In this document: positions 3,052-53,018 of the stretch, in pieces
Position numbering within the stretch: position 1 is the stretch's first letter
Layout: each line of letters opens with the position of its first letter
Origin: an uncultured Prevotella sp.
GTDB lineage: Bacteria; Bacteroidota; Bacteroidia; Bacteroidales; Bacteroidaceae
DNA: 64,000 nt
Assembly: GCA_905233245.1 (NCBI GenBank)
Contig: CAJODK010000002.1
Span: 50-64,049 of the forward strand
Reading direction: 5' to 3'
Translations under genes and position numbers: made by a program
Notes under the pieces: model-generated
Database searches by the model: none
Told to the model about the DNA's origin: nothing
Seen by the model: only the letters and a program-made list of their open reading frames with translations

Positions 3052-3099
3052 AACTTTCAACCTTCAACTTTCAACTTTCAACTTTTATTACTATCTTTG
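3052..3099 (+). promoter_or_regulatory. (ACTTTCA)4 tract plus -7 box TATCTTTG (3092-3099), hflX promoter
   Basis: Read directly from the sequence; ATG follows 8 nt after the box. Confidence 0.8.
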
Positions 3100-3107
3100 C
3101 AAGATAT

Positions 3108-4427
3108 ATGCGTGAGTTTGTAATATCAGAAGCGAAAGCAGAAACTGCCGTGCTCGTGGGACTCATCACCCCACAGCAGGACGAGGCAAAGACCAAGGAA
3201 TACCTGGACGAACTGGAATTCCTTGCAGATACTGCCGGCGCCGTGACTATCAAGCGATTCACCCAGAGAGTGAACGGTCCTTCGAGCGTGACCTACGTGG
3301 GCAAAGGCAAACTGGAGGAGATACGCGACTATATCGAGGCTCAGGAGAAGGCCTATGACGAATGGCAGGAAGAACTGCACTACCCTGAGGAGGGCGACGG
3401 GCCACAGCCTGTTGGTATGGTCATCTTTGACGATGAACTCTCTGCCAAGCAGATACGCAACATAGAACAGGAACTGAAGGTGAAGATACTCGACCGTACA
3501 AGCCTCATCCTCGACATCTTCGCCATGAGAGCGCAGACGGCAAATGCCAAGACACAGGTGGAACTGGCGCAATACCGCTATATGCTCCCTCGCCTGCAGA
3601 GACTGTGGACGCACCTGGAGCGTCAGGGCGGCGGTTCAGGTAGTGGCGGCGGCAAGGGTTCGGTAGGACTGCGCGGTCCGGGTGAGACACAGTTGGAGAT
3701 GGACCGCCGTATCATCCTCAATCGCATGTCACTCCTGAAAGAGCGCCTCGCAGAGATAGACAAGCAAAAGACCACACAGAGAAAGAACCGTGGACGACTG
3801 ATACGCGTGGCACTCGTGGGATATACCAACGTAGGCAAATCGACCATCATGAATATGCTGGCCAAGAGTGAGGTGTTTGCAGAGAACAAACTCTTCGCCA
3901 CGCTCGACACTACGGTCAGGAAGGTAGTGATAGAAAATCTCCCCTTCCTGTTGGCAGATACGGTAGGATTCATCAGAAAACTGCCCACAGACCTTGTCGA
4001 TTCCTTCAAATCCACACTGGACGAGACTCGCGAGGCCGACCTGCTGGTGCATGTGGTGGATATCAGCCATCCTGACTTCGAAGAACAAATCAAGGTGGTG
4101 GAGAAGACACTCGGCGACCTGGGATGTGCCGACAAACCATACATGATAGTCTTCAACAAGATAGACGCCTATACATGGAACGAGAAGGAAGAGGACGACC
4201 TGACACCAGTGAAGAAAAACGAGATATCGCTCGAAGAACTGAAGCAGACGTGGATGGCGAAACTTAACGGGAACGATAACGGGAACGGGAACGTGGACTG
4301 CCTCTTCATCTCGGCAAGGGAGAAGGAGAATATCGACGAATTTAAAGATACACTATACAAAAAAGTAAGGGAACTGCATGTGCAGAAGTACCCCTATAAC
4401 GATTTTCTATGGACTAAACCAGAATAA
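3108..4427 (+). CDS. hflX: GTPase HflX
   Basis: LRGPGETQLEMDRR, GYTNVGKS, LFATLDTT, DTVGFI, NKID. Confidence 0.96.
   Translation: MREFVISEAKAETAVLVGLITPQQDEAKTKEYLDELEFLADTAGAVTIKRFTQRVNGPSSVTYVGKGKLEEIRDYIEAQEKAYDEWQEELHYPEEGDGPQPVGMVIFDDELSAKQIRNIEQELKVKILDRTSLILDIFAMRAQTANAKTQVELAQYRYMLPRLQRLWTHLERQGGGSGSGGGKGSVGLRGPGETQLEMDRRIILNRMSLLKERLAEIDKQKTTQRKNRGRLIRVALVGYTNVGKSTIMNMLAKSEVFAENKLFATLDTTVRKVVIENLPFLLADTVGFIRKLPTDLVDSFKSTLDETREADLLVHVVDISHPDFEEQIKVVEKTLGDLGCADKPYMIVFNKIDAYTWNEKEEDDLTPVKKNEISLEELKQTWMAKLNGNDNGNGNVDCLFISAREKENIDEFKDTLYKKVRELHVQKYPYNDFLWTKPE
4266..4295 (+). repeat. (AACGGG)-type hexamer tract, in-frame in hflX (NGNDNGNGNV)
   Basis: AACGGG AACGAT AACGGG AACGGG AACGTG. 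Confidence 0.8.
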
Positions 4428-4429
4428 CT

Positions 4430-6013
4430 ATGAGCTACAGAAACCTAACACTGAACGAGATTGAGATACTGGAAGAGCAGGGATGCAGAAGTACCTCATG
4501 GACTCAATTGATGGTAGATGACGACTTCGCAGCCAATGACCTGCGCAATGTCAGTTTCGACGGCGATGTGCGCATCGGCAGAGGAGTGAGAATGTGCAAC
4601 GTAGGCATCATACGCACCACTGACGGGGCAACCTTCGGCGAGAACAATCAGATAAGCGTAAAGAACGAAGCCGGAGACGGTAATGTAGTGATATACAGCG
4701 GACTGACATCGCAGATGGCAGCTCTGATGATTAGTACTGCAGAGAACGAGGATAACGAATTCTTTGCCAAACTGCGAGATATGGCATCCTCATACGCGCG
4801 CAAGGCAAAACCAGAATGCACGGTGATAGGCAATGACGTGACCATCATGGACTGCCGCGAACTGACCAACGTAAGCATTGGCGACGGCAGCGAACTGAGT
4901 GGCGCTTCCCGACTCATAGACTGTACGCTCTCCTCAACGCCAAATGCCGCAATATACGTGGGCGACGACGTCATAATGGAGAATACCATAGTACAGGCAG
5001 GTGCTACGATAGTGGATGGTGCGAAGCTGTACGACAGTTTCGTGGGCGAGGCGTGCCACATAGGAAGAGGCTTCACCAGTGAGGCATCGCTCTTCTTTGC
5101 CAATTCACACATGGACAACGGAGAAAGTTGTGCAGCACTCTGCGGTCCATTCTCCGTGAGCCACCACAAGTCCTCACTCCTCATAGGTGGTGAATACTCC
5201 TTCTATAATGCAGGTTCGGGCACCAACTTCTCCAACCACGCCTACAAGATGGGACCTATACACTACGGTCGCATGGAACGCGGTTCGAAGACTGCCAGCG
5301 GAGCACATATCCTGTGGCCGGCACATATCGGAGCATTCACAATGGTGATGGGCAAGGTGCAGACACACCCTGACACCACCTCCCTACCCTTCTCCTACAT
5401 CATAGCAGACGGAAAGCATACCTACGTGATGCCCGGCAAGAACCTATGCACCGTAGGTACATACCGAGACGTGATAAAATGGCCTAAGCGCGACAAGCGT
5501 GCTATGGATGCCCGCAGGTCGCTCATCACATACGACTGGCTGTCACCATATATCATAGAACAGGTGAAGGCAGGCATAGAATATCTCACCGACCTGCAGG
5601 ATGAGCAGGGCTACGACGCAAAGGAATACATGGGCAAGGGATTTCGTATCAAGGCTCCCGCCCTGCAGCACGGAATAGAATACTACCAACACGCTCTGCG
5701 CATGTATGGCAATGCCGCCAGCATCGGTGACTGGACTGACCTGCTCGGACTCCTGGCGCCAACGGAAGCGGTGGAACAGATAAAGGAAGACATCATGAAC
5801 GATGACATCACCAACATCGAAACCCTCGAAAGCCGTTTCCATGATATCTATGACAGCTACGACCAGTGGAAGGGCATCAGCGGTAATGACTCAGAAACGG
5901 ATATGGCACACGAGGAATGGCTCAACGCCATCAGAATGGATGCCGAACGGGAATACGACCTCGGAGATGTCAGCGAAGACCAGATAGCAGAATTCTTAAA
6001 CTCTATTAAATAG
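4430..6013 (+). CDS. DUF4954-family protein (beta-helix-like)
   Basis: CGPFSVSHHKSSLLIGG, NAGSGTNFSNHAYKMGPIHYG; usual position downstream of hflX in Bacteroidales. Confidence 0.8.
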   Translation: MSYRNLTLNEIEILEEQGCRSTSWTQLMVDDDFAANDLRNVSFDGDVRIGRGVRMCNVGIIRTTDGATFGENNQISVKNEAGDGNVVIYSGLTSQMAALMISTAENEDNEFFAKLRDMASSYARKAKPECTVIGNDVTIMDCRELTNVSIGDGSELSGASRLIDCTLSSTPNAAIYVGDDVIMENTIVQAGATIVDGAKLYDSFVGEACHIGRGFTSEASLFFANSHMDNGESCAALCGPFSVSHHKSSLLIGGEYSFYNAGSGTNFSNHAYKMGPIHYGRMERGSKTASGAHILWPAHIGAFTMVMGKVQTHPDTTSLPFSYIIADGKHTYVMPGKNLCTVGTYRDVIKWPKRDKRAMDARRSLITYDWLSPYIIEQVKAGIEYLTDLQDEQGYDAKEYMGKGFRIKAPALQHGIEYYQHALRMYGNAASIGDWTDLLGLLAPTEAVEQIKEDIMNDDITNIETLESRFHDIYDSYDQWKGISGNDSETDMAHEEWLNAIRMDAEREYDLGDVSEDQIAEFLNSIK

Positions 6014-6036
6014 GAATAAAACGTTAAAGATTTTAT

Positions 6037-8934
6037 ATGAGACTTCTTAGAATACTCACCGCAGCTATCATTGTCAATTGTCAATTGTCAATCGTCAATT
6101 TGGAAGCTGCCACCAACGATCCTATCGACCTCCAGACCTACACCCTAGACAACGGCCTGAAGGTATTCCTCTCCGTCAACAAGGAGAAACCACGCATCAC
6201 TGCCCACATAGCCGTCAATACAGGTTCGCGCAACGACCCTGCAGAGACAACGGGGCTGGCACATTATCTGGAGCACCTGATGTTTAAGGGTTCCAAGCAG
6301 TTTGGCACATCCAACTATGCCGCCGAGGAACCCCTGCTCAATAAAATCAGCGATTTGTATGAGGAATATCGCAAACTGACCGACCCTGCTGAACGTAAGG
6401 CTAAGTACCACGAGATAGACTCTGTGTCACAATTGGCAGCGAAGTACAATATCCCTAACGAATACGACAAGATGATGTCGGCCATAGGAAGTACGGGGAC
6501 GAATGCCTACACCTCTTATGACGTGACCTGCTACGTGGAGAATATCCCCGCCAACGAACTGGAACGCTGGTGCATGGTGCAGGGCGACAGATTCCAGAAT
6601 CTCGTCATGCGTGGTTTCCACACCGAACTGGAGGCTGTGTATGAGGAGAAGAATATCACCATGACGAAGGACGGCCGTAAGTCCAACGAGGCTATGCTGA
6701 AGAAACTCTTCCCAACTCACCCCTACGGCATGCAGACCACCATCGGTACACAGGAGCATCTGAAGAACCCTTCTCAGGTGAACATACGCAACTACTACAA
6801 CCGCTACTACGTGCCAAATAACATAGCTATCTGCATGGCTGGCGACCTTGACCCAGAGCAGACTGTAGCTATGATAAAGAAATACTTCGGCACTTGGAAG
6901 CCAGGCAATAACATCACCCCGCCATCGTACCCTGAGCTGCCTCGCATCACTGCACCACAGGATACTACCGTGATGGGACAGGAGACTGAGCACGTCATGC
7001 TGGGCTGGCGCCTCAAGGGAGCCTCTTCCCTGCAGAATGACACCATCTCTATGGTAGATATGCTGCTCTCTAATGGCAAGGTAGGTCTTCTGGATGTGGA
7101 CCTCGACCAAAAGATGAAGGTTATGGGTGTAGGTTCTGGCATATGGGACCTGAAGGACTACAGCATGTTTATTCTGAAGGGTACTCCCAATGAAGGACAG
7201 ACACTCGAGGAAGTGAAGCAGCTGATGCTCGACGAACTCAACAAACTCAAAAACGGCGAATGGGATGAGAGCCTCGTCCGCAGCATCGTCACCAACGAGC
7301 GTCTGGCTCAGCTGACAGCCTTCGACAGCAATGAATCACGCGTCAGCCAGATGGTGGACTGCTATATCACGGGCACTCCTTGGCAACAACACATAGAGCA
7401 ACTGGACCGCATCGACAAACTCACCAAGAGCGAGATTACGGCATGGGCAAAGGAGCATCTCAGCGATGGATACGTCTGTGTGTACAAGCGCAAGGGCGAG
7501 GATACCACTATCGTAAAGATTGAAAAACCTGCCATCACTGCCATACCAAGCAATCGCGATATGCAGAGTGACTTCCTCAAGAATTTCCTCAAAGTGGAGG
7601 TGGAGCCTATCCATCCGCAGTTTGTGGACTATGAGAAGGATATGACGATAGTGCCTATCTCAGGCTCTCAGAATAAGGAACTGCTCTACAAGCAGAACGA
7701 GAAGGACGACCGCTTCTCTCTGCAGTTCCGCTATGAGTTTGGCTCTAATGCCGACCGTCGCTACTCCGTAGCTAACAGCTATTTCGAACTCATCGGCACC
7801 AAGAAACAAACCCTCGACCAGATAAAGCGTAAATTCTATGACATCGCCTGCAACTACTCGTTTGCGGTAGGTGCCAAGAATATCACATTCTCACTCTCTG
7901 GTCTGCAGGAGAATATGCCTAAGGCACTCAAGATGCTCAATGAGGTCATCACGGGACTCCAGGCTGACACTGCCGTATATAATAAGTACATACAGCAAGT
8001 GCAGAAAAGCCGCAGGGAAGTACGCACAAATCAGAAAGCCTGCTACAGCGCTCTCGTGTCCTACGCAATGTATGGCGAGGACACCCCGCTGAAAGATGTG
8101 GCATCCATCAGTGAACTCAAGGCTACCAACCCTGAGGTATATACAAAACTAATCCAAGAGGTTTGGAGTATGCCTGCTACAGTGCTCTACTGGGGACCTG
8201 CTTCTGCAAAGGAAGTGCTCAAGGTCGTTAAAGACTATAAGAAACTTAAGAATCTTAAGGAGCCTGTCAACAAAGTGCGCACCCGACAACTCACCACTCA
8301 GGACGAGGTCATCATCGCTCCTTATGATGCCAAGAACCTCAACATGCGCATGATACACAATGAGAATCTGCCTCTCAATATCGATAATATGCCTCTCGTG
8401 GCACTCTTCAACGAGTATTTCGGAGGTTCGATGAATGCCATCGTATTCCAGGAACTGCGTGAGGCTCGCGGTCTGGCATACAATGCCTCGGCTACCTATG
8501 CAGTACCAAGCCGCAAGGATGAGACAGAGTACTATCAGGAGCATATCATCTCGCAGAATGACAAGTTGGCTGAATGCATCACAGTCTTCAAGCAAATCAC
8601 CGACACGCTGCCAGAATCTCCTAACCTCTTCAATACGGCACAGCAGAGCCTTATCAAGACTATCGCTGCCGCCCGCACTACCAAGATGGGTGTTCTTGCC
8701 AGTTACCTCGGCGCTAAGTATCTTGGTATAGACTATGACATCAATCGCCTGCTGTGGGAGAAGATTCCTACCCTCACGCTGCAGGATCTCGTGCGCTTCG
8801 AACAACAGTATATCAAGGGCAAGCCTCTGCGCTATGCCATACTTGGCAAGGAGGACGAAATCCTTCAGTCGGGTGCTCTCAGCGGGTTCCAGAATATCCG
8901 CCGCTTAACCCTCAATGACATCTTCCCAGAATGA
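6037..8934 (+). CDS. Secreted M16 (insulinase-family) zinc peptidase
   Basis: HYLEH (HxxEH), TNAYT, ELREARGLAY, N-terminal signal peptide. Confidence 0.92.
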   Translation: MRLLRILTAAIIVNCQLSIVNLEAATNDPIDLQTYTLDNGLKVFLSVNKEKPRITAHIAVNTGSRNDPAETTGLAHYLEHLMFKGSKQFGTSNYAAEEPLLNKISDLYEEYRKLTDPAERKAKYHEIDSVSQLAAKYNIPNEYDKMMSAIGSTGTNAYTSYDVTCYVENIPANELERWCMVQGDRFQNLVMRGFHTELEAVYEEKNITMTKDGRKSNEAMLKKLFPTHPYGMQTTIGTQEHLKNPSQVNIRNYYNRYYVPNNIAICMAGDLDPEQTVAMIKKYFGTWKPGNNITPPSYPELPRITAPQDTTVMGQETEHVMLGWRLKGASSLQNDTISMVDMLLSNGKVGLLDVDLDQKMKVMGVGSGIWDLKDYSMFILKGTPNEGQTLEEVKQLMLDELNKLKNGEWDESLVRSIVTNERLAQLTAFDSNESRVSQMVDCYITGTPWQQHIEQLDRIDKLTKSEITAWAKEHLSDGYVCVYKRKGEDTTIVKIEKPAITAIPSNRDMQSDFLKNFLKVEVEPIHPQFVDYEKDMTIVPISGSQNKELLYKQNEKDDRFSLQFRYEFGSNADRRYSVANSYFELIGTKKQTLDQIKRKFYDIACNYSFAVGAKNITFSLSGLQENMPKALKMLNEVITGLQADTAVYNKYIQQVQKSRREVRTNQKACYSALVSYAMYGEDTPLKDVASISELKATNPEVYTKLIQEVWSMPATVLYWGPASAKEVLKVVKDYKKLKNLKEPVNKVRTRQLTTQDEVIIAPYDAKNLNMRMIHNENLPLNIDNMPLVALFNEYFGGSMNAIVFQELREARGLAYNASATYAVPSRKDETEYYQEHIISQNDKLAECITVFKQITDTLPESPNLFNTAQQSLIKTIAAARTTKMGVLASYLGAKYLGIDYDINRLLWEKIPTLTLQDLVRFEQQYIKGKPLRYAILGKEDEILQSGALSGFQNIRRLTLNDIFPE
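6070..6100 (+). repeat. (TTGTCAA)4 heptamer in the signal-peptide coding region (IVNCQLSIVNL)
   Basis: Read directly from the sequence. Confidence 0.9.
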
Positions 8935-9698
8935 ACATTCTGATTTTAGAAGATGACATATTTGTGTATCACCAGTTGTGCGAAATGCTCGACACAATAG
9001 TGCCTGATGCCAACATCATAGGTCCATTGTCAACGGTAAAGCGTGGAAAAATATTCTTCACTGCCAGAAGGGAATGGATAGACCTCATCATAGCAGATAT
9101 ACAACTGAAGGACGGACTCTGCTTTGAGGCTCTCAATAAGGCACCTGACGACGTGCCTGTGATATTCATATCCGACACCGAAGACTATGCCATGCATGCC
9201 TTTGGCTATAATAGTCTTTCGTATCTGCTTAAACCTATAACAGAGGAAACACTGTGTGGGGCCATAAGAAAGTCCTGCACCAGACTGATAACTGACATAG
9301 ACCGACTGGAATGGAAATCACTGGTAAAAGAGCAGATGGGGTATCGCAAGCACTTCACCGTCAACACATTCAGCGGAGAAAGAGTGATAGCCATTGAGGA
9401 GGTGCGTTACTTTGTATCAGAAGGCAAGAATACCTATATGGTGCTACACGACAGCACTTCGTTTGAAATAGGCATGTCGCTTACAGATACTGCCAAGCAA
9501 TTGGACCCACATCGTTTTATGCGCGTGAACCGTAAATACATAGTACCGATAAGCGAAATAGACACTCTGGAGCGCGACATCAACGGCAAGGAGAAACTAC
9601 TACTGAAAGAAGGAGTAAGGAATCCCATAATAATAATAAGCCGCGACAAAAAGAACATTGTTCACAAATGGATAAATGGGGTGCACACAACACAATGA
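8931..9698 (+). CDS. LytTR-family response regulator
   Basis: Receiver domain ILEDD/DIQL/YLLKP plus LytTR LDPHRFMRVNRKYIV. Confidence 0.9.
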   Translation: MNILILEDDIFVYHQLCEMLDTIVPDANIIGPLSTVKRGKIFFTARREWIDLIIADIQLKDGLCFEALNKAPDDVPVIFISDTEDYAMHAFGYNSLSYLLKPITEETLCGAIRKSCTRLITDIDRLEWKSLVKEQMGYRKHFTVNTFSGERVIAIEEVRYFVSEGKNTYMVLHDSTSFEIGMSLTDTAKQLDPHRFMRVNRKYIVPISEIDTLERDINGKEKLLLKEGVRNPIIIISRDKKNIVHKWINGVHTTQ

Positions 9699-9736
9699 GA
9701 ATGTGCAAATGAGCGACGGTTCAATCCCCAAAAACT

Positions 9737-9766
9737 ACGTTTCGGCTTTTTGCCGAAACGTTTTTT
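9737..9766 (+). terminator. Intrinsic terminator
   Basis: ACGTTTCGGC-TTTTT-GCCGAAACGT followed by a T tract. Confidence 0.8.
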
Positions 9767-9789
9767 ATTGCTATTCTTGCAGCTATAAA

Positions 9790-9797
9790 TACCTTTG
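9790..9797 (+). promoter_or_regulatory. -7 element TACCTTTG for the thioesterase/acyl-CoA ligase genes
   Basis: TAnnTTTG consensus just downstream of the terminator. Confidence 0.65.
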
Positions 9798-9802
9798 CAA
9801 GT

Positions 9803-10228: not shown

Positions 10229-10268
10229 ATTAATGTTTAAACAATACAAAGTATAAAGAGATTTCATT

Positions 10269-11897: not shown

Positions 11898-11953
11898 TCG
11901 AAGTTTTTTACAAAATTATTCGCACTTAATTCTTGGTTATACATTTTTTTTAC

Positions 11954-11961: not shown

Positions 11962-11969
11962 CATCTTGT

Positions 11970-17699: not shown

Positions 17700-19014
17700 A
17701 TATAGAGGTCAGAGGTGAGAGGTCAGAGGTGAGAGAATTGCTATAAGCTATTTGACCGTTGACTAAAGTCTTTTCAACCTTCCAGTTAAAGGTTTTGCCC
17801 TCCAGCGGACTCCATCCACACTTACTCTGTATAATATCCTTGGTCACGGTCCAAGCCTCTCCTTTCCTTACAATAGCAATATCCGCCTTATACCCTGGAC
17901 GCAGGAAACCGCGCTCGCTGACTCCGAAAAGTCGCGCTGGATTGTGGCACATCAGTTCCACAAGGCGCTCTATCGTCAGCACCTCCTTGTCCACTAGGCT
18001 AAGCATGCTGACCAGCGAGAACTGCACCATCGGCATACCCGACATTGCCTTCGCTGCTCCACCCTGCTTCTCTTCCAACGTATGTGGGGCGTGGTCGGTG
18101 CTGATAGTTGATAGTTGATAGTTGAAAGTTGAAAGAGCGTTGCGCAAGGCATCCCTATCATTCAGCGTCTTGACAGCGGGATTACACTTGATGAAGGCAC
18201 CGAGTGTATCGTAGTCCTCACGGGAGAAAAGCAGGTGAGCTACTGTAGCCTCACCAGTGATATTGTCACCAAGGAGTTCGAGTTCTCTCGCTGTAGTGAT
18301 GTGGGCAATATGGAATCGTGTACCGTGCTTCTTAGCCAGTCGCACACCCAGCAGCGAACTGCGATAGCAGGCTTCCTCCGAACGAATGAAGGGGTGATAC
18401 TGAATGGGTGGGTCGTCCATGCCCAGTTCCTCCTTTACGCGTGCCATATTGTGATTGATAATCTCTGTATCCTCACAGTGCGCCATCAGAGGCAGATCGA
18501 GTTCCTTGACCAAAGCAAAGATGCCGTCCAGTGCCTCCTCCCTATCCACCAGCATATTGCCCGTGGAGGAACCCATAAAGAGTTTTATACCAGGCACCTC
18601 ATGGACGTCCAGTTTGCGGAGTTCGTCGAGGTTGTCATTCGTAGCACCAGGGAAGAAGGCATAGTTCACGTGCATGCGGCCCTTCGCCAATTCCTGTTTC
18701 TCGCGAAGCGCCTCGATAGTCGTCGTCTGCGGTTTGGTGTTAGGCATCTCAAAGACGCTCGTCACCCCACCCCAAGCAGCAGCCCTGCTCTCCGTCTCCA
18801 TATCAGCCTTGTGCATCAGACCAGGCTCACGGAAGTGCACGTGGGAGTCGATGACGCCAGGTAGGACGTAGCAACCCTCTGCGTCGATGACGGTCTCTCC
18901 CCCTTGGGGGGAGACGGAGGGGGGTATCTCCCTTATCCTATCCCCATCAACAACAAGGTCGGCCTTCATCTGCCGACCCTCGTTAACTATTATTCCACCT
19001 TTTATTAATAGCAT
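17671..19014 (-). CDS. pyrC: Dihydroorotase
   Basis: DSHVHFREPG, EMPNT, KLFMGSSTG, KCNP, TDHAPH. Confidence 0.93.
   Translation of the reverse strand: MLLIKGGIIVNEGRQMKADLVVDGDRIREIPPSVSPQGGETVIDAEGCYVLPGVIDSHVHFREPGLMHKADMETESRAAAWGGVTSVFEMPNTKPQTTTIEALREKQELAKGRMHVNYAFFPGATNDNLDELRKLDVHEVPGIKLFMGSSTGNMLVDREEALDGIFALVKELDLPLMAHCEDTEIINHNMARVKEELGMDDPPIQYHPFIRSEEACYRSSLLGVRLAKKHGTRFHIAHITTARELELLGDNITGEATVAHLLFSREDYDTLGAFIKCNPAVKTLNDRDALRNALSTFNYQLSTISTDHAPHTLEEKQGGAAKAMSGMPMVQFSLVSMLSLVDKEVLTIERLVELMCHNPARLFGVSERGFLRPGYKADIAIVRKGEAWTVTKDIIQSKCGWSPLEGKTFNWKVEKTLVNGQIAYSNSLTSDLSPLTSIYGQPIKFRI
17704..17735 (-). repeat. (TCTCACC/TCTGACC)4.5 heptamer near the PyrC C-terminus (LTSDLSPLTS)
   Basis: AGAGGTC AGAGGTG AGAGGTC AGAGGTG AGAG on the + strand. 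Confidence 0.9.
18102..18135 (-). repeat. (TGATAGT)3(TGAAAGT)2 heptamer, in-frame in pyrC (LSTFNYQLSTIS)
   Basis: Read directly from the sequence. Confidence 0.9.
18897..18924 (+). repeat. C/G-rich palindromic element, in-frame in pyrC (PPSVSPQGGE)
   Basis: CTCCCCC-TTG-GGGGGAG followed by ACGGAGGGGGG. Confidence 0.85.
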
Positions 19015-19787: not shown

Positions 19788-19835
19788 AACTTTAACCTTT
19801 CAACTTTCAACTTTCAACTTTTTTTAGTACCTTTG
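19788..19835 (+). promoter_or_regulatory. (ACTTTCA)4 tract plus -7 box TACCTTTG (19828-19835), purU promoter
   Basis: Read directly from the sequence. Confidence 0.8.
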
Positions 19836-19851
19836 CAAAAATTTACGGATA

Positions 19852-20715
19852 ATGGACAAAACAGCAATACTACTACTACACTGCCCCGACAAGCAGGGCA
19901 TCATAACGGAGATGACACGATTCATCACCGCCAACAACGGTAACATCGTCTATCTCGACCAGTATGTGGACACCGTGGACCACCGCTTCTTCATGCGAGT
20001 GGAATGGACCACCGAGAGCTTCGCCATCCCCGACGAGAAGATAGAGGAATATATCGAGACACTCTACGGCCAGCGCTATGATATGGAGTTCAAACTCTAC
20101 TTCAGTGACAAGCGCCCACGCATGGCACTCTTCGTCAGCAAGATGAGCCACTGCCTCTACGACCTCCTTGCACGATACAAGGCAGGCGAACTGGAGTGCG
20201 ACATCCCCTGCATCGTCAGCAACCACGAAGACCTGCGCTACGTGGCAGAGCAGTTTGACATACCTTATTACGTGTGGTCCATCAAGAAGGACTGGTCGAA
20301 CAAGCAGGAAGTGGAACAGGCAGAGATGCAGCTCATGAAGGAGAAGCAAATCAACTTCATCGTCCTGGCGCGCTACATGCAGATAATCTCCGAGGATATG
20401 ATTAAGGCGTTCCCAAACCGCATCATCAATATCCACCACTCCTTCCTGCCAGCCTTCATCGGCGCCAAGCCATATCATCAGGCATACCAGCGAGGCGTGA
20501 AGATTATCGGTGCCACCAGTCACTACGTGACCACCGAACTGGATGCAGGCCCCATCATCGAACAGGACGTGGTACGCATCACCCACAAGGACACCCCCGA
20601 GACCCTCGTTCTCAAGGGCAAGGACCTGGAGAAGATAGTCCTCTCCCGTGCAGTCAAGAAGCACATCGAGCGCAAGGTGCTCGCCTACCACAACAAGACT
20701 ATCATCTTCAGTTAA
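19852..20715 (+). CDS. purU: Formyltetrahydrofolate deformylase
   Basis: ACT domain CPDKQGI; LARYMQI; INIHHSFLPAFIGAKPY; LDAGPIIEQ. Confidence 0.96.
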   Translation: MDKTAILLLHCPDKQGIITEMTRFITANNGNIVYLDQYVDTVDHRFFMRVEWTTESFAIPDEKIEEYIETLYGQRYDMEFKLYFSDKRPRMALFVSKMSHCLYDLLARYKAGELECDIPCIVSNHEDLRYVAEQFDIPYYVWSIKKDWSNKQEVEQAEMQLMKEKQINFIVLARYMQIISEDMIKAFPNRIINIHHSFLPAFIGAKPYHQAYQRGVKIIGATSHYVTTELDAGPIIEQDVVRITHKDTPETLVLKGKDLEKIVLSRAVKKHIERKVLAYHNKTIIFS

Positions 20716-25466: not shown

Positions 25467-26854
25467 GAAAAATCATAATGCATAATGCAAAATTCATAAT
25501 TGGCATAGTGGCAATGTCACTACTCTCCAGTTGCGGACTATACAAGAAGTACGAGCGTCCGGCAGACGTGGAGGTTAAGGGCATCATGCGTGGTGCGGAG
25601 ACGGCTGACAGCCTCACATTCGGCGATGTCGATTGGCACGAGGTATTCACCGACCCACAGCTACAGAGCCTCATACAGCAGGGACTGGACAATAACGACG
25701 ACATGTTTGCCGCCGCTGCCAATGTAAAGAAACTGGAAGCCGCTCTGCATGCAGCACGACTGGCATTCCTGCCCACGGTGAACTTCAACCCATCGGGTAC
25801 GCTGAGCAAAGTACTCACAGGTAATCGCAAGGGCGACTGGTCAAAGTCGTACGCCCTGCCAGTGTCAGCAAGTTGGACCTTCGACCTCTTTGGCAATATC
25901 CTCTCGCAGAAACGTAGTGCGCAGATGAGTCTGGAGATGGCAAAGGACAACGAGCAGGCTGTGCGCTCAAGACTTATCTGTTCGATAGCCAACAGCTACT
26001 ACACCCTGCTGATGCTCGACCGCCAGTTGGAGATACTCACCGAAATGGAGGGTATCGGCAGTAATACACTGGAGATGATGAAGTTGCAGAAAGAACTGCG
26101 CGGAGCTAAGGAGACGAGCGTAATGTCAGCAAAGTCGGCACTGCTCAATATACAGGCAAACAAGGTGGATATGCGTCGCCAGATAAGCGAAGTGGAGGCA
26201 TCACTGTCACTGCTCGTAGATCAGCCCGCACAGCACATAGAGCGTGGCAAACTGGCTGACCAGTCACTACCCACACGGTTTGCTACCGGCACCGAACTGT
26301 CACTGCTGCGCAACCGTCCTGACGTACACGCAGCAGAGATGAATTTGGCAGCCTGCTTCTACGATGTAGAGAATGCCCGCAGTAAAATGTACCCCACTAT
26401 CACCATCTCTGGCACAGGCTCCTTCACCAATGACATAGGTACCATAGCCAATCCTGGACAGTGGCTCGCAAGATTCGTAGGAGGACTGACGCAACCTATC
26501 TTCCAGAATGGTCGTCTGCGCGCCCAACTCAAGGTGGCGAAACTCAGCTACGAGGTGGCTTTCCGCGAGTGGGAACATCAGATACTCCATGCTGGAGCTG
26601 AGGTAAGCAATGCCCTCGTAGAGTATAACAGCAGCAACGAGCAGAGCCTGATAGACCGCGAGAACGTGGAGGTGCTCACCAAAGCAGTAGATTACACTCA
26701 GCAACTCTACCGCATGAGGTCAAGCACATATCTGGAAGTGCTCACTGCACAACAGCAACTCCTCAATGCGCAAATCGATCAGGTAAGCGATGACTTCAAC
26801 AAGATGCAGGCCGTAGTAAGCCTCTACAGCGCTCTGGGAGGAGGAAGGAAGTAA
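25463..26854 (+). CDS. TolC/NodT-family outer membrane factor (lipoprotein)
   Basis: Lipobox LLSSC; RPDVHAAE; C-terminal LYSALGGG. Confidence 0.92.
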   Translation: MRKIIMHNAKFIIGIVAMSLLSSCGLYKKYERPADVEVKGIMRGAETADSLTFGDVDWHEVFTDPQLQSLIQQGLDNNDDMFAAAANVKKLEAALHAARLAFLPTVNFNPSGTLSKVLTGNRKGDWSKSYALPVSASWTFDLFGNILSQKRSAQMSLEMAKDNEQAVRSRLICSIANSYYTLLMLDRQLEILTEMEGIGSNTLEMMKLQKELRGAKETSVMSAKSALLNIQANKVDMRRQISEVEASLSLLVDQPAQHIERGKLADQSLPTRFATGTELSLLRNRPDVHAAEMNLAACFYDVENARSKMYPTITISGTGSFTNDIGTIANPGQWLARFVGGLTQPIFQNGRLRAQLKVAKLSYEVAFREWEHQILHAGAEVSNALVEYNSSNEQSLIDRENVEVLTKAVDYTQQLYRMRSSTYLEVLTAQQQLLNAQIDQVSDDFNKMQAVVSLYSALGGGRK

Positions 26855-26880
26855 AAGTTGAATGTTGAATGTTGAAAGTT
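26852..26880 (+). repeat. Heptamer tract TAAAAGT TGAATGT TGAATGT TGAAAGT, starting at the OMF stop codon
   Basis: Read directly from the sequence. Confidence 0.8.
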
Positions 26881-26889
26881 TAAAGCTTT

Positions 26890-27737: not shown

Positions 27738-27764
27738 ATTAAAAAACTTTAAAAACATTCTCCT

Positions 27765-27810
27765 CTTTCAACTTTCAACTTTCAACTTTCAACTTTTCTT
27801 TGTACCTTTG
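27765..27810 (+). promoter_or_regulatory. (CTTTCAA)4 tract plus -7 box TACCTTTG (27803-27810), rplS promoter
   Basis: Read directly from the sequence. Confidence 0.8.
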
Positions 27811-33247: not shown

Positions 33248-33295
33248 CAAAGATAATAATAAAAAATGAAAGTTGAAAGTTGAAAGTTGAAAGTT
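33248..33295 (-). promoter_or_regulatory. (ACTTTCA)4 tract plus -7 box TATCTTTG (33255-33248), mutase promoter
   Basis: Read on the - strand. Confidence 0.8.
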
Positions 33296-46102: not shown

Positions 46103-46109
46103 ATCACAT

Positions 46110-46150
46110 TATACTCTATACTTTATACTTTATACTCTATACTCTATACT
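46110..46150 (-). repeat. (TATACTY)6 heptamer spanning the MBL stop codon and intergenic gap
   Basis: Read directly from the sequence. Confidence 0.9.
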
Positions 46151-46950: not shown

Positions 46951-47069
46951 TTTTAGGTTAATATTTTGAATACAAAGGTAGCAAAAAAAAATTGTATACT
47001 CTCTTTTTTTTACATTATTTAGTAGAAAACGACGAAAAATCAAAAATAATTCGTATCTTTGCAGAAGCG

Positions 47070-50000
47070 ATGAAGACACTGACAGTATATAAGGCGAGTG
47101 CGGGGAGTGGAAAGACTTTCACTCTTGCAGTAGAGTATATCCGTCTGCTGATAGAAAATCCGGAGTCTTTCCGTGGCATTCTGGCCGTAACCTTCACCAA
47201 CAAGGCTACAGAGGAGATGAAGATGCGTATTCTCTCGCAACTCTATGGCATCGCCAATAATTTCCCTTCTTCTCAAGTTTACGTCAAGGCTCTAAAGGAG
47301 AGGCTTGGCAGCAATTATACCGACAGGTTGATTGCTGAACGAGCGGGAAAGTCGCTTCACCTGCTACTACACAACTACCACTTTTTTCGCGTGCAAACCA
47401 TCGACACGTTCTTTCAGTCAGTGCTGAGGAATCTGGCTCGCGAACTGCAACTGAATGCTAATCTGCGCGTGGAACTCAATACCAAGCAGGTAGTGGAACA
47501 GGCTATAGACAATCTCATCGACTCCATCGCAGATGACGGTAAACTGCGCAACGTCGTAATGGGCTATATCCACGAGAGAATGGCAGGTGGCGAGTCATGG
47601 AACTTTATCCGAGGCATCAAGGACTTTGGTGGCAATATCTTCAAGGACTTCTACAAAGAGCACCGCAAGAGACTCAACGAGGTCGCACAAGACCCTAACT
47701 TCTTCAACAAGTACAAGTCCAAGATGAATGCCATTATGGAGAGTCTGGACACGAAATACCGCGAGATAGGTGAAGAGGCGATGCGCATAGTGGAGGAGCA
47801 CGAGCTATCGTTCACTGACTTCAGTTATGGGGCAACGGGTGCTTTGGGCTATTTCATCAAGATGGCCAATGGCAAATTCAGCGAGATAGACATGACGAAG
47901 GGGCGCATGAAGCAGGGTTTGGATGACCCCGAGACATGGGTAGCGAAGAAGACGGAAAATCGCGAGGATATCATCGCTTTCGTAATGAGTACCCTGCACC
48001 CACTGATGCGACGCACTGAGAGCCAACGAAAAATTGACGTGAGGCAGTATATGTCTGCCAAGCGTACAATGGAGCATATCAACAATGTGTGGTTATTGCG
48101 CTATGTGGAGTCCTTTGCAAAAGACCTCAACGATGCGGAACAGCGTTTCATGCTGAGCGACACCCCCACCCTGCTGAGCGAGATGGTCAAGGACGAGGAC
48201 TCGCCATTCATCTTTGAGAAGATAGGAGCACATCTGGAGCACATCATGATAGACGAATTTCAGGATACGAGTATAGTACAGTGGCGCAATTTCAAGAGCC
48301 TACTCCGTGAATGCATGGACAATGGCCATAGCAACCTACTCGTGGGCGATGTAAAACAAAGCATATATCGCTGGCGCTCAGGTGATTGGAGATTGCTAAA
48401 TGGCGATATCGAAAAGGATTTCCAAAATGGAGCAATTGACTACCGTCCCTTAAGCAAGAACTTCCGTTCTGAGCCTAATGTGATTCATTTCAACAACATT
48501 TTTCTGCGCGCTACTGCTGACATAGAGGTAGGAGCAATAGCCGAGGAGACACTACCACTGGCAGAGCAACTACGCAAGGCTTATAGCGATGTGGAGCAAA
48601 TGCTACCCTCTAACTCCCCCCTCCAGGGGGAGGATTCTGGCGGCTTCGTGCACATCGAACTGATTGGCAAGGAGACTGAGCGTTCTATGGAGGAACGCAC
48701 GCTCGACATCATAAACACACTAAAGAACTCCCCCTCGGGGGAGAATCAGGAGAGGCACATAGCCATCCTCGTGCGTGGCAACAAGGAAGCCATTGCGATG
48801 GCGACATTCCTCAAGAGCCAGGGCATCAACGTAGTATCAGCAGAGGCCTTCCGACTGGATGCTTCCAAGGCGGTGCGCAAGATTATCGAGGAGATGGAGA
48901 ATCGTCGCACCCAACTCACCTCTATGTCGCTGCACGACCTCGCAGAGGAGATAGTACGCGAGAATATGGAGGGCGAGGATAGTAAAGTCTGGAGAGAAGA
49001 GGGAGCCTACATCACCACCTTCTTTGACCGTCTGAGCGACTTCACACGCAATACATCCACTGTGCTTGAGGACTTTCTCAGAGCATGGGAGGACGACATA
49101 TGCAGCAAGACCATCGAGACGCCTGACACTGACGGTATACGCATCATGACAATACATAAGAGTAAGGGATTGGAATTCAAGCATGTCATACTGCCCTACT
49201 GCAACTGGCGCTTGGAACAGCGACAGGTGATATGGTGCGAACCCCAAGATGCGCCTTTCAACGAACTCCCCATCGTGCCTCTTAACTACTCTTCGGTGAA
49301 CGCCTTCCGTGACACCATCTACTACGACGATATACAAAAGGAACACGTGCAGAATATGGTTGACAACCTCAATCTGCTCTACGTTGCAATGACACGTGCT
49401 TGCCAATCGCTCTTCGTGATTGGGGAACGAGGAGAGAAGACCAACTCCCGACGCTCCTTCACCATCGAACAGGCCATACGCCAACTTCCGCCAGAGATAG
49501 AGGGTTTGCCAGTGCATATCAGCATCCCTGAGGATGAGACAGAGGATATCGAGGTGAACTATGGCAACCTTAACCCTAACAAACCCTCATCCCTCATCCC
49601 TCATCCCTCATCAATAAACCCCTTCTCTCCCACCATCACTCCACTCACTATCCCCGTTACTTCTTTGGAGAGTGAGGCGATATTTCGACAGAGTAATAAG
49701 AGTAGGGTATTTGCTGAGGACTGCATCAACGAGACCGACCGTCAGCGATACATCCGCATGGGTACGGTGATGCACCAGATATTCTCCGAGATACGCACCC
49801 TGGACGACGTGCAGTCAGTGCTTCAGAGGATGGAGTTTGATGGTACGCTGTACGATGAAGACGTCACTCGAGAGTCACTCATTGCAGAGTTAAAGGAAAG
49901 ATTCCAAAACCAGCAGATAAGAGACTGGTTTTCTGAACGTTGGACATTATACAATGAATGTGCAATCCTCACTATTGATGGTGAACAACGCCCTGACCGA

Positions 50001-50177
50001 GTGATGACGAATGGCACTGAAACCATCGTTATCGATTTCAAATTTGGCAAGCCATTGGCAGAGCACCGAGAACAAGTATCTCGCTACATGTGTTTGCTCA
50101 AAGATATGGGTATGCCAAACATAAAAGGCTATCTATGGTACGTAACGCTGAACAAGGTTGAAGAATTAAAAGATTGA
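47070..50177 (+). CDS. UvrD/AddA-like helicase-nuclease (ATG at 47070)
   Basis: ASAGSGKT, TFTNKA, DEFQD, GDVKQSIYRWR, TIHKSKGLEF, C-terminal RPDR..IDFK; -7 box at 47054-47061. Confidence 0.92.
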   Translation: MKTLTVYKASAGSGKTFTLAVEYIRLLIENPESFRGILAVTFTNKATEEMKMRILSQLYGIANNFPSSQVYVKALKERLGSNYTDRLIAERAGKSLHLLLHNYHFFRVQTIDTFFQSVLRNLARELQLNANLRVELNTKQVVEQAIDNLIDSIADDGKLRNVVMGYIHERMAGGESWNFIRGIKDFGGNIFKDFYKEHRKRLNEVAQDPNFFNKYKSKMNAIMESLDTKYREIGEEAMRIVEEHELSFTDFSYGATGALGYFIKMANGKFSEIDMTKGRMKQGLDDPETWVAKKTENREDIIAFVMSTLHPLMRRTESQRKIDVRQYMSAKRTMEHINNVWLLRYVESFAKDLNDAEQRFMLSDTPTLLSEMVKDEDSPFIFEKIGAHLEHIMIDEFQDTSIVQWRNFKSLLRECMDNGHSNLLVGDVKQSIYRWRSGDWRLLNGDIEKDFQNGAIDYRPLSKNFRSEPNVIHFNNIFLRATADIEVGAIAEETLPLAEQLRKAYSDVEQMLPSNSPLQGEDSGGFVHIELIGKETERSMEERTLDIINTLKNSPSGENQERHIAILVRGNKEAIAMATFLKSQGINVVSAEAFRLDASKAVRKIIEEMENRRTQLTSMSLHDLAEEIVRENMEGEDSKVWREEGAYITTFFDRLSDFTRNTSTVLEDFLRAWEDDICSKTIETPDTDGIRIMTIHKSKGLEFKHVILPYCNWRLEQRQVIWCEPQDAPFNELPIVPLNYSSVNAFRDTIYYDDIQKEHVQNMVDNLNLLYVAMTRACQSLFVIGERGEKTNSRRSFTIEQAIRQLPPEIEGLPVHISIPEDETEDIEVNYGNLNPNKPSSLIPHPSSINPFSPTITPLTIPVTSLESEAIFRQSNKSRVFAEDCINETDRQRYIRMGTVMHQIFSEIRTLDDVQSVLQRMEFDGTLYDEDVTRESLIAELKERFQNQQIRDWFSERWTLYNECAILTIDGEQRPDRVMTNGTETIVIDFKFGKPLAEHREQVSRYMCLLKDMGMPNIKGYLWYVTLNKVEELKD
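48603..48756. repeat. Two oppositely oriented C/G-rich palindromic elements (48603-48632 and 48728-48756), in-frame in the AddA-like gene
   Basis: CTCCCCC-CTCCA-GGGGGAG and CTCCCCC-TC-GGGGGAG. Confidence 0.85.
49566..49612 (+). repeat. Hexamer plus (CCCTCAT)4 tract, in-frame (NLNPNKPSSLIPHPSS)
   Basis: Read directly from the sequence. Confidence 0.9.
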
Positions 50178-52933
50178 TGAAGTTCCTAGAGGCCATTGCC
50201 AAAGACATATTGGAGAAGTACGGAACAGACCTTCACGAGGTGACGGTTGTGTTCCCCAACAAGCGTGCTGCACTGTTTCTCAATAAGGCGCTGACGGAAT
50301 TGTGCGACCACCCCATTTGGAGTCCGCGATACACCACCATCAGCGAACTCTTCCAGTCGTTGTCTGAACTCCGACTGGCTGACCGCATCAAACTCATCTG
50401 CGAACTCCACAAATCCTATTGCCATGTGACTGGCAAGGACGAGACATTGGAGCAGTTCTATGGCTGGGGCGAGGTGATGCTGAGCGATTTTGATGATATC
50501 GACAAGCATCTGGGCGATGCCAAGAAGATTTTCACCCTGCTCAGCGACATCCATGAACTAGATTCCATCGATTATCTCACGCCGGAGAAGGTAGAGATTC
50601 TGAAAGGATTCTTCCGCAATTTCTCTGCTGACCACTCTACGGTGCTCAAAGAGCGCTTCCTCGAACTTTGGAATCGTTTCTATGACATCTACGAGCACTA
50701 TCGCCAGTCTTTACTATCACAAGGCATAGCATACGAAGGTATGCTCTACCGAAAGACAATAGAAATCTCTAACCTCTCCGCTCCAGCTCTGCTGGCTTGC
50801 AAGGCAAGACCTCTCACCTCTCACCTCTTTATCGGCTTCAATCTCCTCACTCCCGTTGAGCAGTTGCTCATAACAAAATTGGGAGGCAAGATATACAACG
50901 ATGACGATACGTCATGCCCACCAGAGGAAGTGTCCATCATCTCCTCACCCACCGACGACCTGCAAGCCCGCTACGTCACCCAGTGGCTCACCCCTGAGCG
51001 CATCCAGGCTGGCAGACGAACTGCCATAGTACTCGCTGACGAGGGATTGCTGGAGACAGTGCTCCACTGCCTACCATCTGGCATCAGTCTCAATATCACT
51101 ACGGGTTATCCACTATCGCAGGCCTCCATCACTTCGCTGGTGAAGGTGGTGACTACCTTGTTGCAAAGGGGTAGTTACACACTCCACAACATCAACGCCG
51201 TGCTCCGTCACCCCCTGACTCGCTACCTCTCACTCGAGGTGACGACATTACACGACCGCCTCAACCGCGATATGATATACTACCTCACGCCAGAGGACGT
51301 GTCTGTGGACGATAATCTGCGCCAACTCTTTGCCCCACTCCAAGACAAAGAGAGTCCCCTCGAACTCACCAATCGTCTCATATGGCTCACACGCACCATC
51401 GCTAAAAGGGTTCAAGAAGTTCAAGGGGTTCAAGAGGAGTCTCAATTGGATAGTGAAGCCCTCTACCGTATGTTCACCATCCTCAATCGCATCAAGTCGC
51501 TGATAGAGGATGACGACATCAGTATAAGCGCTACGCTCTACGCCAAACTCCTCAATCAGGTAATACAAACGACCACGATACCTTTCCACGGTGAACCCAT
51601 TGAGGGCATACAGGTGATGGGTGTTTTGGAGACGCGCAATCTGGACTTCGACCACGTGCTATTGCTCTCATGCAACGAGGGCAACCTGCCTGCACGCATC
51701 AACGACACCTCTTTCCTGCCCCACTCCATTCGTCAGGGTTACGACCTCACCACCATCGAGAATAAGGTGAGCATCTACCATTACTACTTCGACCGCCTTC
51801 TACAGAGAACAAAGGACGTCACCATCCTCTACAACAACTCCACCAACGATGGCAAGACTGGTGAGATGTCCCGGTTCATGCTCCAACTCATAGCAGAGAG
51901 CCCTATACCTATCAAGCGCTACGCCCTGCAAGCTACAACGGGAACGCCAACGGAAACGGGAACTGAGTCTGTTGACAAAACTCCTGAGATGGTGCAGCAG
52001 ATGCTAGGTCGTGCATTCCTTTCGCCCTCGGCATTAGGGAAATACTTGAGATGTCAGATGGAGTTCTACTACCAATATATCGAGAATCTCGATGAGGATG
52101 AAGACAGTGACCAGGAAGAGATGGACAGCCGTGCCTTTGGCACCATCTTCCATCGTGCTGCCGAACTCCTCTATCAGGACTTTGTGGGCAAGGTAGTGCC
52201 TCGTGACTACATGGAACGTCTGCTTCGTGAGAAGGGACATATTTCCCTCCGACGCTTCACCGAACAAGCTTTTCGCGAGAAGCTCTTCAACCTTGAGGGA
52301 AACGCACGTAAAACTCCGAAACTCAACGGTTTACAGGTCATAAATTTTGAGATAGTGGTGCAATTTCTCATCAATCTCCTGCGCTACGACCTCTCCCTCA
52401 CCCGTCTGGAAATAGTGGCACTTGAGAAGACGGTCAAGGGAACAATTTCTGTTCCAATTTCAGTTCCCGTCAACGTTAATATCGGTGGCAACATCGACCG
52501 CCTCGATATCGTCACCGACACTGACGGAGTGCGCCGCATGCGAGTGATAGACTACAAGACAGGCCGTCTCACACGTCGCCTCAATCTCAATAACGTCGAT
52601 GAAATCTTCATGCCCTCGAAACTCGCCGCTCACGCCAATTACTTCCTCCAAGCCCTCCTCTACGCCAGCATCCTCAACGACCAAACGACCAAACAACCAG
52701 ACAACCAGATATCCACTGGCCTTCTCTACGTCCAGCACGCTCATCAGGAGGACTACGACCCGCTGCTATCCATTGATGGCCACCCCATAAAGGATGCTTC
52801 CATCTACATGGAACAGTTCCGTGAGGGACTCACACGTCTCATCTCAGAGATACTCGACACCAATGTGCCATTCCGTCGCACCGACAACGACACTTTCTGC
52901 ACCGACTGCCCATTCCATCACCTCTGCTATTAG
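50177..52933 (+). CDS. AddB-like PD-(D/E)XK nuclease-family protein
   Basis: VFPNKRA, PFHGEP..GIQVMGVLETR, SPSAL..C, GNIDRLD, IDYKTG, C-terminal CxxC Fe-S ligands. Confidence 0.9.
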   Translation: MKFLEAIAKDILEKYGTDLHEVTVVFPNKRAALFLNKALTELCDHPIWSPRYTTISELFQSLSELRLADRIKLICELHKSYCHVTGKDETLEQFYGWGEVMLSDFDDIDKHLGDAKKIFTLLSDIHELDSIDYLTPEKVEILKGFFRNFSADHSTVLKERFLELWNRFYDIYEHYRQSLLSQGIAYEGMLYRKTIEISNLSAPALLACKARPLTSHLFIGFNLLTPVEQLLITKLGGKIYNDDDTSCPPEEVSIISSPTDDLQARYVTQWLTPERIQAGRRTAIVLADEGLLETVLHCLPSGISLNITTGYPLSQASITSLVKVVTTLLQRGSYTLHNINAVLRHPLTRYLSLEVTTLHDRLNRDMIYYLTPEDVSVDDNLRQLFAPLQDKESPLELTNRLIWLTRTIAKRVQEVQGVQEESQLDSEALYRMFTILNRIKSLIEDDDISISATLYAKLLNQVIQTTTIPFHGEPIEGIQVMGVLETRNLDFDHVLLLSCNEGNLPARINDTSFLPHSIRQGYDLTTIENKVSIYHYYFDRLLQRTKDVTILYNNSTNDGKTGEMSRFMLQLIAESPIPIKRYALQATTGTPTETGTESVDKTPEMVQQMLGRAFLSPSALGKYLRCQMEFYYQYIENLDEDEDSDQEEMDSRAFGTIFHRAAELLYQDFVGKVVPRDYMERLLREKGHISLRRFTEQAFREKLFNLEGNARKTPKLNGLQVINFEIVVQFLINLLRYDLSLTRLEIVALEKTVKGTISVPISVPVNVNIGGNIDRLDIVTDTDGVRRMRVIDYKTGRLTRRLNLNNVDEIFMPSKLAAHANYFLQALLYASILNDQTTKQPDNQISTGLLYVQHAHQEDYDPLLSIDGHPIKDASIYMEQFREGLTRLISEILDTNVPFRRTDNDTFCTDCPFHHLCY
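50767..50827 (+). repeat. Twin-hairpin cassette, copy 2 (covariant), in-frame in the AddB-like gene
   Basis: TCTAACC TCTCCGCT CCAGC-TCT-GCTGG CTTGC-AAG-GCAAG ACC TCTCACC TCTCACC. Confidence 0.9.
52676..52707 (+). repeat. (AACGACCA)4 octamer, in-frame (NDQTTKQPDNQ)
   Basis: Read directly from the sequence. Confidence 0.85.
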
Positions 52934-52970
52934 TCCCCCGCTTCTTATTAAAAAAACTTAAAGGCACCAC

Positions 52971-53018
52971 AACTTTCAACCTTCAACTTTCAACTCTCAA
53001 CTAAAATCAGTACCTTTG
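52971..53018 (+). promoter_or_regulatory. (ACTTTCA)4 tract plus -7 box TACCTTTG (53011-53018), rarA promoter
   Basis: Read directly from the sequence; ATG follows 8 nt after the box. Confidence 0.8.

Follow-up and report, generated by a model that had tools for sequence, protein, structure and literature searches.

The stretch of DNA analyzed here (hereafter the window; 64,000 nt, positions 50-64049 of contig C2) belongs to the genome of an uncultured member of the Prevotellaceae (referred to as G000; 1.93 Mb in 49 contigs, 49% G+C, 82% completeness), whose closest species among the genomes compared is Prevotellaceae bacterium UBA4332 (referred to as G016). Five genes in the window, which encode HflX, PurU, ribosomal protein L19, the small subunit of methylmalonyl-CoA mutase, and a RarA-like ATPase, are each preceded by a tandem array of the heptamer ACTTTCA that ends at a fixed distance from a -7 box, TAnnTTTG. 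The original prediction had described about four such units, an 11-nt spacer and the box at all five promoters, and direct reading of the sequence bears this out in five of five cases: each site has four units, some with one mismatch and all oriented with transcription, and the spacer is always 11 nt. The gene names given at that time also hold in family scans. The five promoters are as follows.

3053..3099, + strand: hflX promoter; array 3053-3080 (ACTTTCA, ACCTTCA, ACTTTCA, ACTTTCA), spacer ACTTTTATTAC 3081-3091, box TATCTTTG 3092-3099; ATG at 3108.
19789..19835, + strand: purU promoter; array 19789-19816 (four units, the first two degenerate), spacer ACTTTTTTTAG 19817-19827, box TACCTTTG 19828-19835; ATG at 19852.
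27764..27810, + strand: rplS (L19) promoter; array 27764-27791 (one TCTTTCA, then three ACTTTCA), spacer ACTTTTCTTTG 27792-27802, box TACCTTTG 27803-27810.
33248..33294, - strand: promoter of the methylmalonyl-CoA mutase small subunit gene (mutA); (ACTTTCA)4 33294-33267, spacer TTTTTTATTAT 33266-33256, box TATCTTTG 33255-33248.
52972..53018, + strand: rarA-like promoter; array 52972-52999 (ACTTTCA, ACCTTCA, ACTTTCA, ACTCTCA), spacer ACTAAAATCAG 53000-53010, box TACCTTTG 53011-53018; ATG at 53027.

The double unit (with at most one mismatch) occurs 18 times in the window, compared with 0.01 occurrences expected from shuffles, and about 14 further plausible -7 boxes carry no array, in line with the earlier remark that other promoters of the window lack the tract. 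The start codons of hflX and rarA lie only 16 nt past the first T of the -7 box, so their mRNAs would be leaderless or nearly so; several other array promoters in G000 have similarly short distances from box to start.

The fixed distance holds beyond the window. When all tracts of at least three ACTTTCA units in G000 were collected and the distance from the last CA to TAnnTTTG was measured, 40 of the 53 tracts had the 11-nt spacing. The raw distance was 11 in 32 tracts, 4 in eight, 9 in two, 12 in two, and 3 in one, and the eight at distance 4 become distance 11 once a degenerate fifth unit, ACTTTTA, is counted as spacer. Nearly all of the tracts consist of four units. The remaining eight have no downstream box (e.g., C4:8563, C30:5160, and C34:4652), and some of these apparently lie in coding sequence. 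The resulting module has the consensus A-rich stretch, (ACTTTCA)4, ACT[TTTT/AAAA]nTTnG, TACCTTTGCA, and its 47-nt core of array, spacer, and box is common to about 50 loci.

A second scan, which took every box of the form TA[ACT][CT]TTTGC and looked for a period-7 signal at -39 to -8 relative to the box, found a strong signal at 72 of 590 boxes, or at 77-78 (about 12%) with a slightly looser definition of the box. The -7 element TAnnTTTG is thus present at all five window sites and at the 72-78 genome sites, mostly as TACCTTTGCA. Most of these arrays are built of ACTTTCA, the dominant unit, or TCTTTCA, and arrays of ATTCTTA, ATTATGA, ATGCATA, ACTGTGA, or ACTCTCA stand in the same register. The arrays with alternative units likewise have four units and a spacer that opens with the first three bases of the unit, followed by the box. 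Across the promoter unit types only positions 1, 3, 5, and 7 (A.T.T.A) are near-invariant, and the four units are about equally conserved; arrays away from promoters in G000 use quite different units. Among the readings offered in the original prediction, that of a co-opted promoter module comes near the data, the tract belonging to a recurrent promoter architecture over the -33 region, but ACTTTCA is the commonest of several in-register units. Two array loci depart from the usual layout. At about 31245-31299 of contig C11, two divergent -7 boxes 54 nt apart have one array in common, which is 11 nt from each box and is read by the two in opposite orientations. On contig C42, upstream of a tRNA-Met gene, an array and an 11-nt spacer are present and the -7 box is missing; the spacer runs into GCACTCGC, which looks as if TACCTTT had been deleted.

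Promoters of the Bacteroidetes primary sigma factor reportedly combine a -7 TAnnTTTG with a -33 TTTG, 19-21 nt apart, a description that goes back to Bayley et al. in 2000. In G000, boxes without an array are preceded by TTTG at -24 or -23, counted from the first T of the box, which corresponds to a gap of 20 or 19 nt (N20 or N19). The array spans -39 to -12 and overlies this position, and a TTTG 19-21 nt upstream of the box is absent from the arrays: those of ACTTTCA hold CTTT at N20 and TTTC at N19, and the other unit types match TTTG even less. We considered unit 3 as a conserved surrogate of the -33 element and found no support for this, conservation being flat from unit to unit. Further upstream, an A-rich element consisting of TTAAnAA at -63/-64 and TAAAR at -52/-53 is found in about 40% of array promoters.

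What the array promoters do retain is a motif that occurs in ordinary promoters as well. In the array-less promoters of G000, TTTCA peaks at -16 (27 matches; the mean per position is 1.8), with further peaks of CAAC at -13 and of ACTT at -11, and these peaks coincide with the last array unit and the start of the spacer. TTTCA is likewise positioned in five module-free congeners, each 99% complete, in which the spacing from TTTCA to TAnnTTTGC was N10 in 16 matches, N11 in 144, and N12 in 46. TTTCA at N11 is a native positional promoter element of the genus, of which we found no description in the literature searched. As the last array unit falls on this native element, the 11-nt phase calls for no new factor, and as the motif is present in congeners free of arrays, nor does it call for repeat deposition targeted by the open promoter complex, the third of the readings in the original prediction, for or against which the data do not speak. 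In G000, TTTCA at N11 is accompanied by a -33 TTTG in about half of the cases, typically as TTTGGTnnTTTCA. Four G000 promoters have a single ACTTTCA, an 11-nt spacer opening with ACTTTT, and the box, without an array upstream, and at least one of them has an ordinary TTTG directly upstream; these single-unit promoters are likely the starting state of the arrays.

Array promoters are strongly concentrated at tRNA genes: they precede 20 of the 35 tRNA transcription units, compared with about 58 of 560 other boxes (odds ratio 17, p = 3e-12), and in 16 of the 20 the mature tRNA 5' end lies 18-48 nt past the box. We further scanned 45 proteins encoded downstream of array promoters against family libraries. 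Among those assigned to a clear family are L19, L25, S15, L31, L21, IF3, GltX, PheS, TrmD, PNPase, and HflX, and translation genes are enriched; the others include PEPCK, methylmalonyl-CoA mutase, a CoA transferase, UvrB, ArgR, peptidases, kinases, and unknowns. The set does not look like a regulon and looks like a class of strong housekeeping promoters.

Among relatives, the exact module, (ACTTTCA)3-N9-13-box, is present in seven of 401 sampled congeners; a scan of 16 other genera of the order gave no match. The exact matches number 19 in G000, 13 in G091, 9 in G317, 8 in G016, 4 in G246, and 1 each in G276 and G165, and among these listed matches the spacer is N11 in all but one, though N9-13 was permitted. 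A scan of metagenomes that required two units and permitted 4-34 nt before the box gave 81 sites, of which 46 have four units and 46 have N11, and which are mostly of rumen or gut origin, judged from contig names. We had considered whether the module is confined to two species; this was rejected, as the exact module is carried by the seven congeners and by many rumen and gut metagenome contigs. The primary sigma factor itself differs little between genomes with and without arrays. Sigma-A is 98% identical within the array clade, and the proteins of G000, G091, G317, and G246 have one fixed difference (residue 50) from those of 13 array-poor congeners. An altered region 4 of sigma-A, the part that recognizes the -33 element, was ruled out for the array clade, as no fixed difference lies in that region, and one and the same sigma-A is predicted to read both promoter types.

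The metagenome loci also bear on the possibility of a phase-variable switch, in which gain or loss of units would alter expression. Such a switch is known from the adhesin genes hmw1A and hmw2A of Haemophilus influenzae, where long, variable ATCTTTC arrays form a contingency switch at the two genes (PMC8262952, PMC12721329). The resemblance lies in the tandem 7-nt units in the promoter or 5' region and in their nearly identical sequence, since rotating the hmw unit gives the variant unit TCTTTCA. In G000, however, there are only four, fixed units at about 75 housekeeping promoters, and no length polymorphism was seen. Six clusters of near-identical metagenome loci, a small sample, have one copy number each; sister species keep four units; and the genes concerned are those for tRNAs, ribosomal proteins, and central metabolism and not those for surface antigens. 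Phase variation was rejected on the lack of copy-number differences among these clusters, and we regard it as highly improbable.

Comparison with G016 separates what is conserved in the array promoters from what is not. Within the 846 kb of G016 sequence covered, 21 of 249 boxes have a phased array, with units more varied than in G000. For 18 G000 array promoters an ortholog could be identified in G016: eight have arrays in both genomes, three are degenerate in G016, and seven are ordinary promoters there. The eight shared pairs always have four units and 11 nt; as a rule, all four copies of the unit are changed between the two genomes. For example, the rplS promoter has ACTTTCA in G000 and (ACTGTGA)4 in G016, the purU promoter has ACTTTCA in G000 and (ACTTTAT)4 in G016, both in the same frame, and in another pair ACTTTCA/ACCTTCA in G000 corresponds to ACTCTCA/ACCCTCA in G016. 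No array was found at the rplS promoter of the other relatives read (22 congeners and six genomes of other genera). At the tRNA-Asp promoter, the full frame of the module holds a non-repeat 28-nt core in G000 and an ATTCTTC array in G016; the promoter at this locus is an ordinary TTTG-N20 one in G091 and G246. These comparisons show that the geometry is kept and the core sequence is not: the array retains its length and register, and the 28-nt core changes rapidly and in a concerted manner. The flanks of orthologs are too diverged (70-83% DNA identity) to tell insertion from replacement.

This turnover weakens the suggestion in the original prediction that the array is a binding array for some factor, since orthologous promoters of G016 keep the geometry and change the unit. 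In a more specific version, comparable to ToxR, ToxT, and H-NS at the Vibrio cholerae ctxAB heptads or to SARP activators, the A.T.T.A units would be read by a protein, either activator or nucleoid protein, that brings RNA polymerase to promoters without a -33 element. It would account for the near-invariance of A1, T3, T5, and A7 at promoters and the quite different units of arrays elsewhere, for the equal conservation of all four units, for units that change in concert across the loci of one species, and for the loss of the -33 element at essential tRNA promoters. Against such a reader, a single genome mixes several unit types in one register, the unit at a given promoter is exchanged between orthologs, and the tRNA-Asp promoter of G000 keeps the frame around a core that is not a repeat; contiguous 7-bp sites would moreover face different sides of the helix, the N11 phase is already accounted for by the native motif, and we have no candidate protein, though none was sought. 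We therefore regard this possibility as unlikely.

A dispersed promoter cassette, copied or converted before many genes so that the identical phase reflects shared ancestry, is another explanation for modules at so many loci. Putative mobile promoters of this kind, with near-identical promoter sequences upstream of unrelated genes, are said to have been described by Matus-Garcia et al. in 2012. The non-repeat flanks can indeed be near-identical, as in the tRNA-Asp and tRNA-Pro modules of G000, which have a single mismatch in the 25 nt preceding the core. The presence of the module at tRNA-Asp in G000 and G016 and of an ordinary promoter in G091 and G246 would also fit a cassette, as would variants such as ACCTTCA in unit 2 or 3 that are common to many loci and the co-variation of spacer type and unit type within G016. 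The core is shared by about 50 loci and the flanks by some of them only, such as this tRNA pair. Against a cassette, many array promoters (e.g., those of hflX, purU, and mutA) have no common sequence upstream of the array. Terminal repeats or target duplications were not noticed, in the course of work that included no systematic search for them, and the single-unit promoters with an ordinary -33 element, together with the native motif in array-free species, favor growth in place. Copying of a cassette seems to us rather unlikely.

Heptamer arrays are by no means limited to promoters, a finding that modifies the earlier interpretation: arrays of about 32 nt also occur at non-promoter sites throughout the genome and the genus. 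Exact arrays of at least three units in G000 number 92 at period 7, compared with 0-18 for each other period from 4 to 12, and TRF reports 353-359 arrays of period 7, whose median size is 4.6 copies and 32 nt. By location, 73 are promoter-phased, 96 straddle the ends of open reading frames (ORFs), 71 are intergenic, 42 lie in the first 90 nt of ORFs, 5 lie within 60 nt of an ORF 3' end, and 66 lie deep in ORFs, these classes being approximate as they are based on crude longest-ORF calls. The promoter arrays are tighter in length (31-35 nt from the 10th to the 90th percentile) than the others (22-42 nt). At non-promoter junctions, arrays are present in both G000 and G016 and differ in unit and in array number. 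Among the purU loci of 80 Prevotella-like species (305 kb), period 7 is dominant, with 46 arrays, which indicates that the heptamer process is genus-wide; the promoter module is restricted to a small clade. In several of these species (AAATTGT)~4.6 immediately precedes the start codon of purU, and in others arrays lie just past its stop codon.

In the window, two non-promoter arrays have units close to ACTTTCA.

18102..18136, - strand: array of ACTTTCA/ACTATCA units within the dihydroorotase (pyrC) frame.
26854..26885, - strand: array of the ACTTTCA/ACATTCA type, filling the gap from the stop codon of an efflux outer-membrane gene to the lpxA start.

The G016 ortholog of pyrC has (TTGGTCG)~5 and then (AACTGTG)~4 at the same place, about 70 nt compared with 31 nt in G000. 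The array upstream of lpxA is reversed relative to transcription and has no -7 box, and the same junction in G016 has different heptamer arrays. A CATAATG array at 25474-25500 lies just past the start codon of the efflux outer-membrane lipoprotein, in the n-region of its signal peptide; in G016 the leader has no array, and the upstream intergenic region has three other arrays. Arrays at 6070, 14698, 17704, 46110, 49584, 54288, 61542, and 63526 have about 4-6 copies of units unrelated to ACTTTCA and lie at gene junctions or near gene starts, with at least that at 49584 inside a long ORF.

Since arrays of the same typical size are found across the genome and the genus at junctions, in 5' regions, and within reading frames, the promoter arrays might be a tolerated mutational by-product. 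Heptamers would expand preferentially in the negatively supercoiled DNA upstream of very active promoters, would be selected against only where they break the promoter, and would contribute nothing to transcription. Their enrichment at the most transcribed genes would agree with this. Yet the canonical -33 element has been removed at 20 tRNA promoters, so the arrays must at the very least stand in for it; arrays vary much less in length and register at promoters than at other sites; and both are conserved between species while the sequence turns over. We consider a mere by-product quite improbable.

The explanation that we prefer, and for which we would put the balance at about even, is that the heptamer process at work across the genus copied a native spacer element repeatedly in the upstream direction and that the product was then held at fixed length as the upstream half of strong sigma-A promoters. 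Its starting point would be the TTTCA that Prevotella promoters natively carry 11 nt upstream of TAnnTTTG, often in the arrangement TTTG-N4-TTTCA-N11-box. In a small rumen and gut clade of Prevotellaceae, this element, in the form of the heptamer ACTTTCA, would have been reiterated upstream to four units, probably through the same slippage or conversion that has spread heptamer arrays of about 32 nt across these genomes, and the reiteration would have overwritten the -33 TTTG. The phase would be fixed because the last unit remains on the native element. From then on the array would be held at 28 bp with only the coarse A.T.T.A pattern constrained, so that the unit could drift and be re-homogenized. 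In function, the array may act as a uniform AT-rich segment of fixed length, and at most as a weak -33 surrogate (through TTTC at N19), that sets the distance from the upstream TTAAnAA-N4-TAAAR element to the -7 box. The three added units amount to 21 bp, or two helical turns, which would keep the upstream elements on the same face of the helix. The anatomy, phase, distribution, enrichment, and conserved geometry of the arrays and the native motif are direct observations; from them we infer the origin by reiteration, the activity of the modules as promoters, and the role of spacing.

Several observations sit uneasily with reiteration of the native element. The three G016 promoters with a ACTAAATTTA[CG] spacer all carry ACTCTCA-type units, and such concerted change of units at separate loci needs either conversion between loci or selection by a trans-acting factor, neither of which is provided by simple local slippage. 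Units at the -33 position are no better conserved than the others, T3 being less conserved in units 2 and 3, and this flat profile leaves a role as -33 surrogate unsupported. The upstream element whose distance the array is proposed to set was seen in well under all of the array promoters (the 40% or so given above), and the only account of the preference for exactly four units is the conjectural helical-turn argument. Finally, units such as ATTCTTA and ATTATGA lose the native TTTCA, which would make the native motif dispensable once an array exists.

A bolder proposal, which we put forward tentatively and think rather unlikely to hold, is that the -33/-35 half of these promoters has been replaced by a self-homogenizing repeat that is read in register by the transcription machinery or by a heptad factor, with a copy number that is helically quantized (1, 4, 7) and a unit that co-evolves across dozens of promoters. 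If true, a self-homogenizing, in-register repeat would amount to a new kind of promoter architecture and a new way in which promoters evolve in concert. As it stands, about one eighth of what appear to be the strong promoters of this genome, including most tRNA promoters, have a four-unit repeat and no canonical -33 element, and this repeat changes its sequence between sister species but keeps its length and register. The array promoters therefore constitute a natural experiment on which parts of a Bacteroidetes promoter are required. They also expose the positional TTTCA element of Prevotella promoters and tie the evolution of promoters to a poorly understood feature of prokaryotes, their excess of heptanucleotide repeats. 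In addition, genetic tools for Prevotella, a genus of major importance in rumen and gut that is difficult to engineer, could draw on the modules as ready candidates for strong constitutive promoters.

Our literature search found no publication with the ACTTTCA double-unit string, in the rotations and strands tried, and the search on promoter repeats in Bacteroidetes and Prevotella found as analogs only the TAACTGA repeats, the ctxAB heptads, the SARP sites, and the hmw1A arrays. Heptanucleotide repeats of prokaryotes have been described as LSSRs (Mrazek 2007, as summarized in PMC4679880), and TAACTGA repeats in Beggiatoaceae, Cyanobacteria, and five Bacteroidetes, located just upstream of start codons, were proposed to act on translation (MacGregor 2015, PMC4679880). 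G000 is similar in its genome-wide excess of short tandem heptamers, mostly intergenic, in 2-6 copies, and patchy across lineages. The arrays at purU starts recall the TAACTGA repeats, and other arrays in G000 and the genus do adjoin start codons. The promoter arrays, however, are not in that position; they end 11 nt upstream of the -7 box and replace the -33 element.

Heptamer direct repeats that lie upstream of the -35 region, or replace it, in a set register to the core promoter are known from two other systems: the TTTTGAT heptads of Vibrio cholerae ctxAB, bound by ToxR, ToxT, and H-NS (bioRxiv 10.1101/2021.05.14.444153), and the repeats recognized in place of a -35 element by SARP activators (PMC5930380). 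Those repeats are sites of known regulators at one or a few promoters, unlike the G000 arrays. SARP repeats are spaced on one face of the helix, whereas the G000 units are contiguous and vary between promoters.

The UP elements of Escherichia coli rRNA and tRNA promoters are AT-rich, lie upstream of a core that retains its -35 element, and are read by the C-terminal domain of the RNA polymerase alpha subunit (alpha-CTD). The G000 arrays similarly place AT-rich DNA upstream of the core at promoters of stable RNAs and translation genes, but an UP element is not a tandem repeat and does not replace the -35 element. With the ordinary Bacteroidetes sigma-A promoter, the array promoters share a -7 box of perfect consensus at a suitable distance from tRNA 5' ends and start codons, and the array-less promoters of the same genome have the -33 TTTG at N19 or N20; the array promoters differ in having a repeat instead of the -33 TTTG, together with an A-rich element at -63 and -52.

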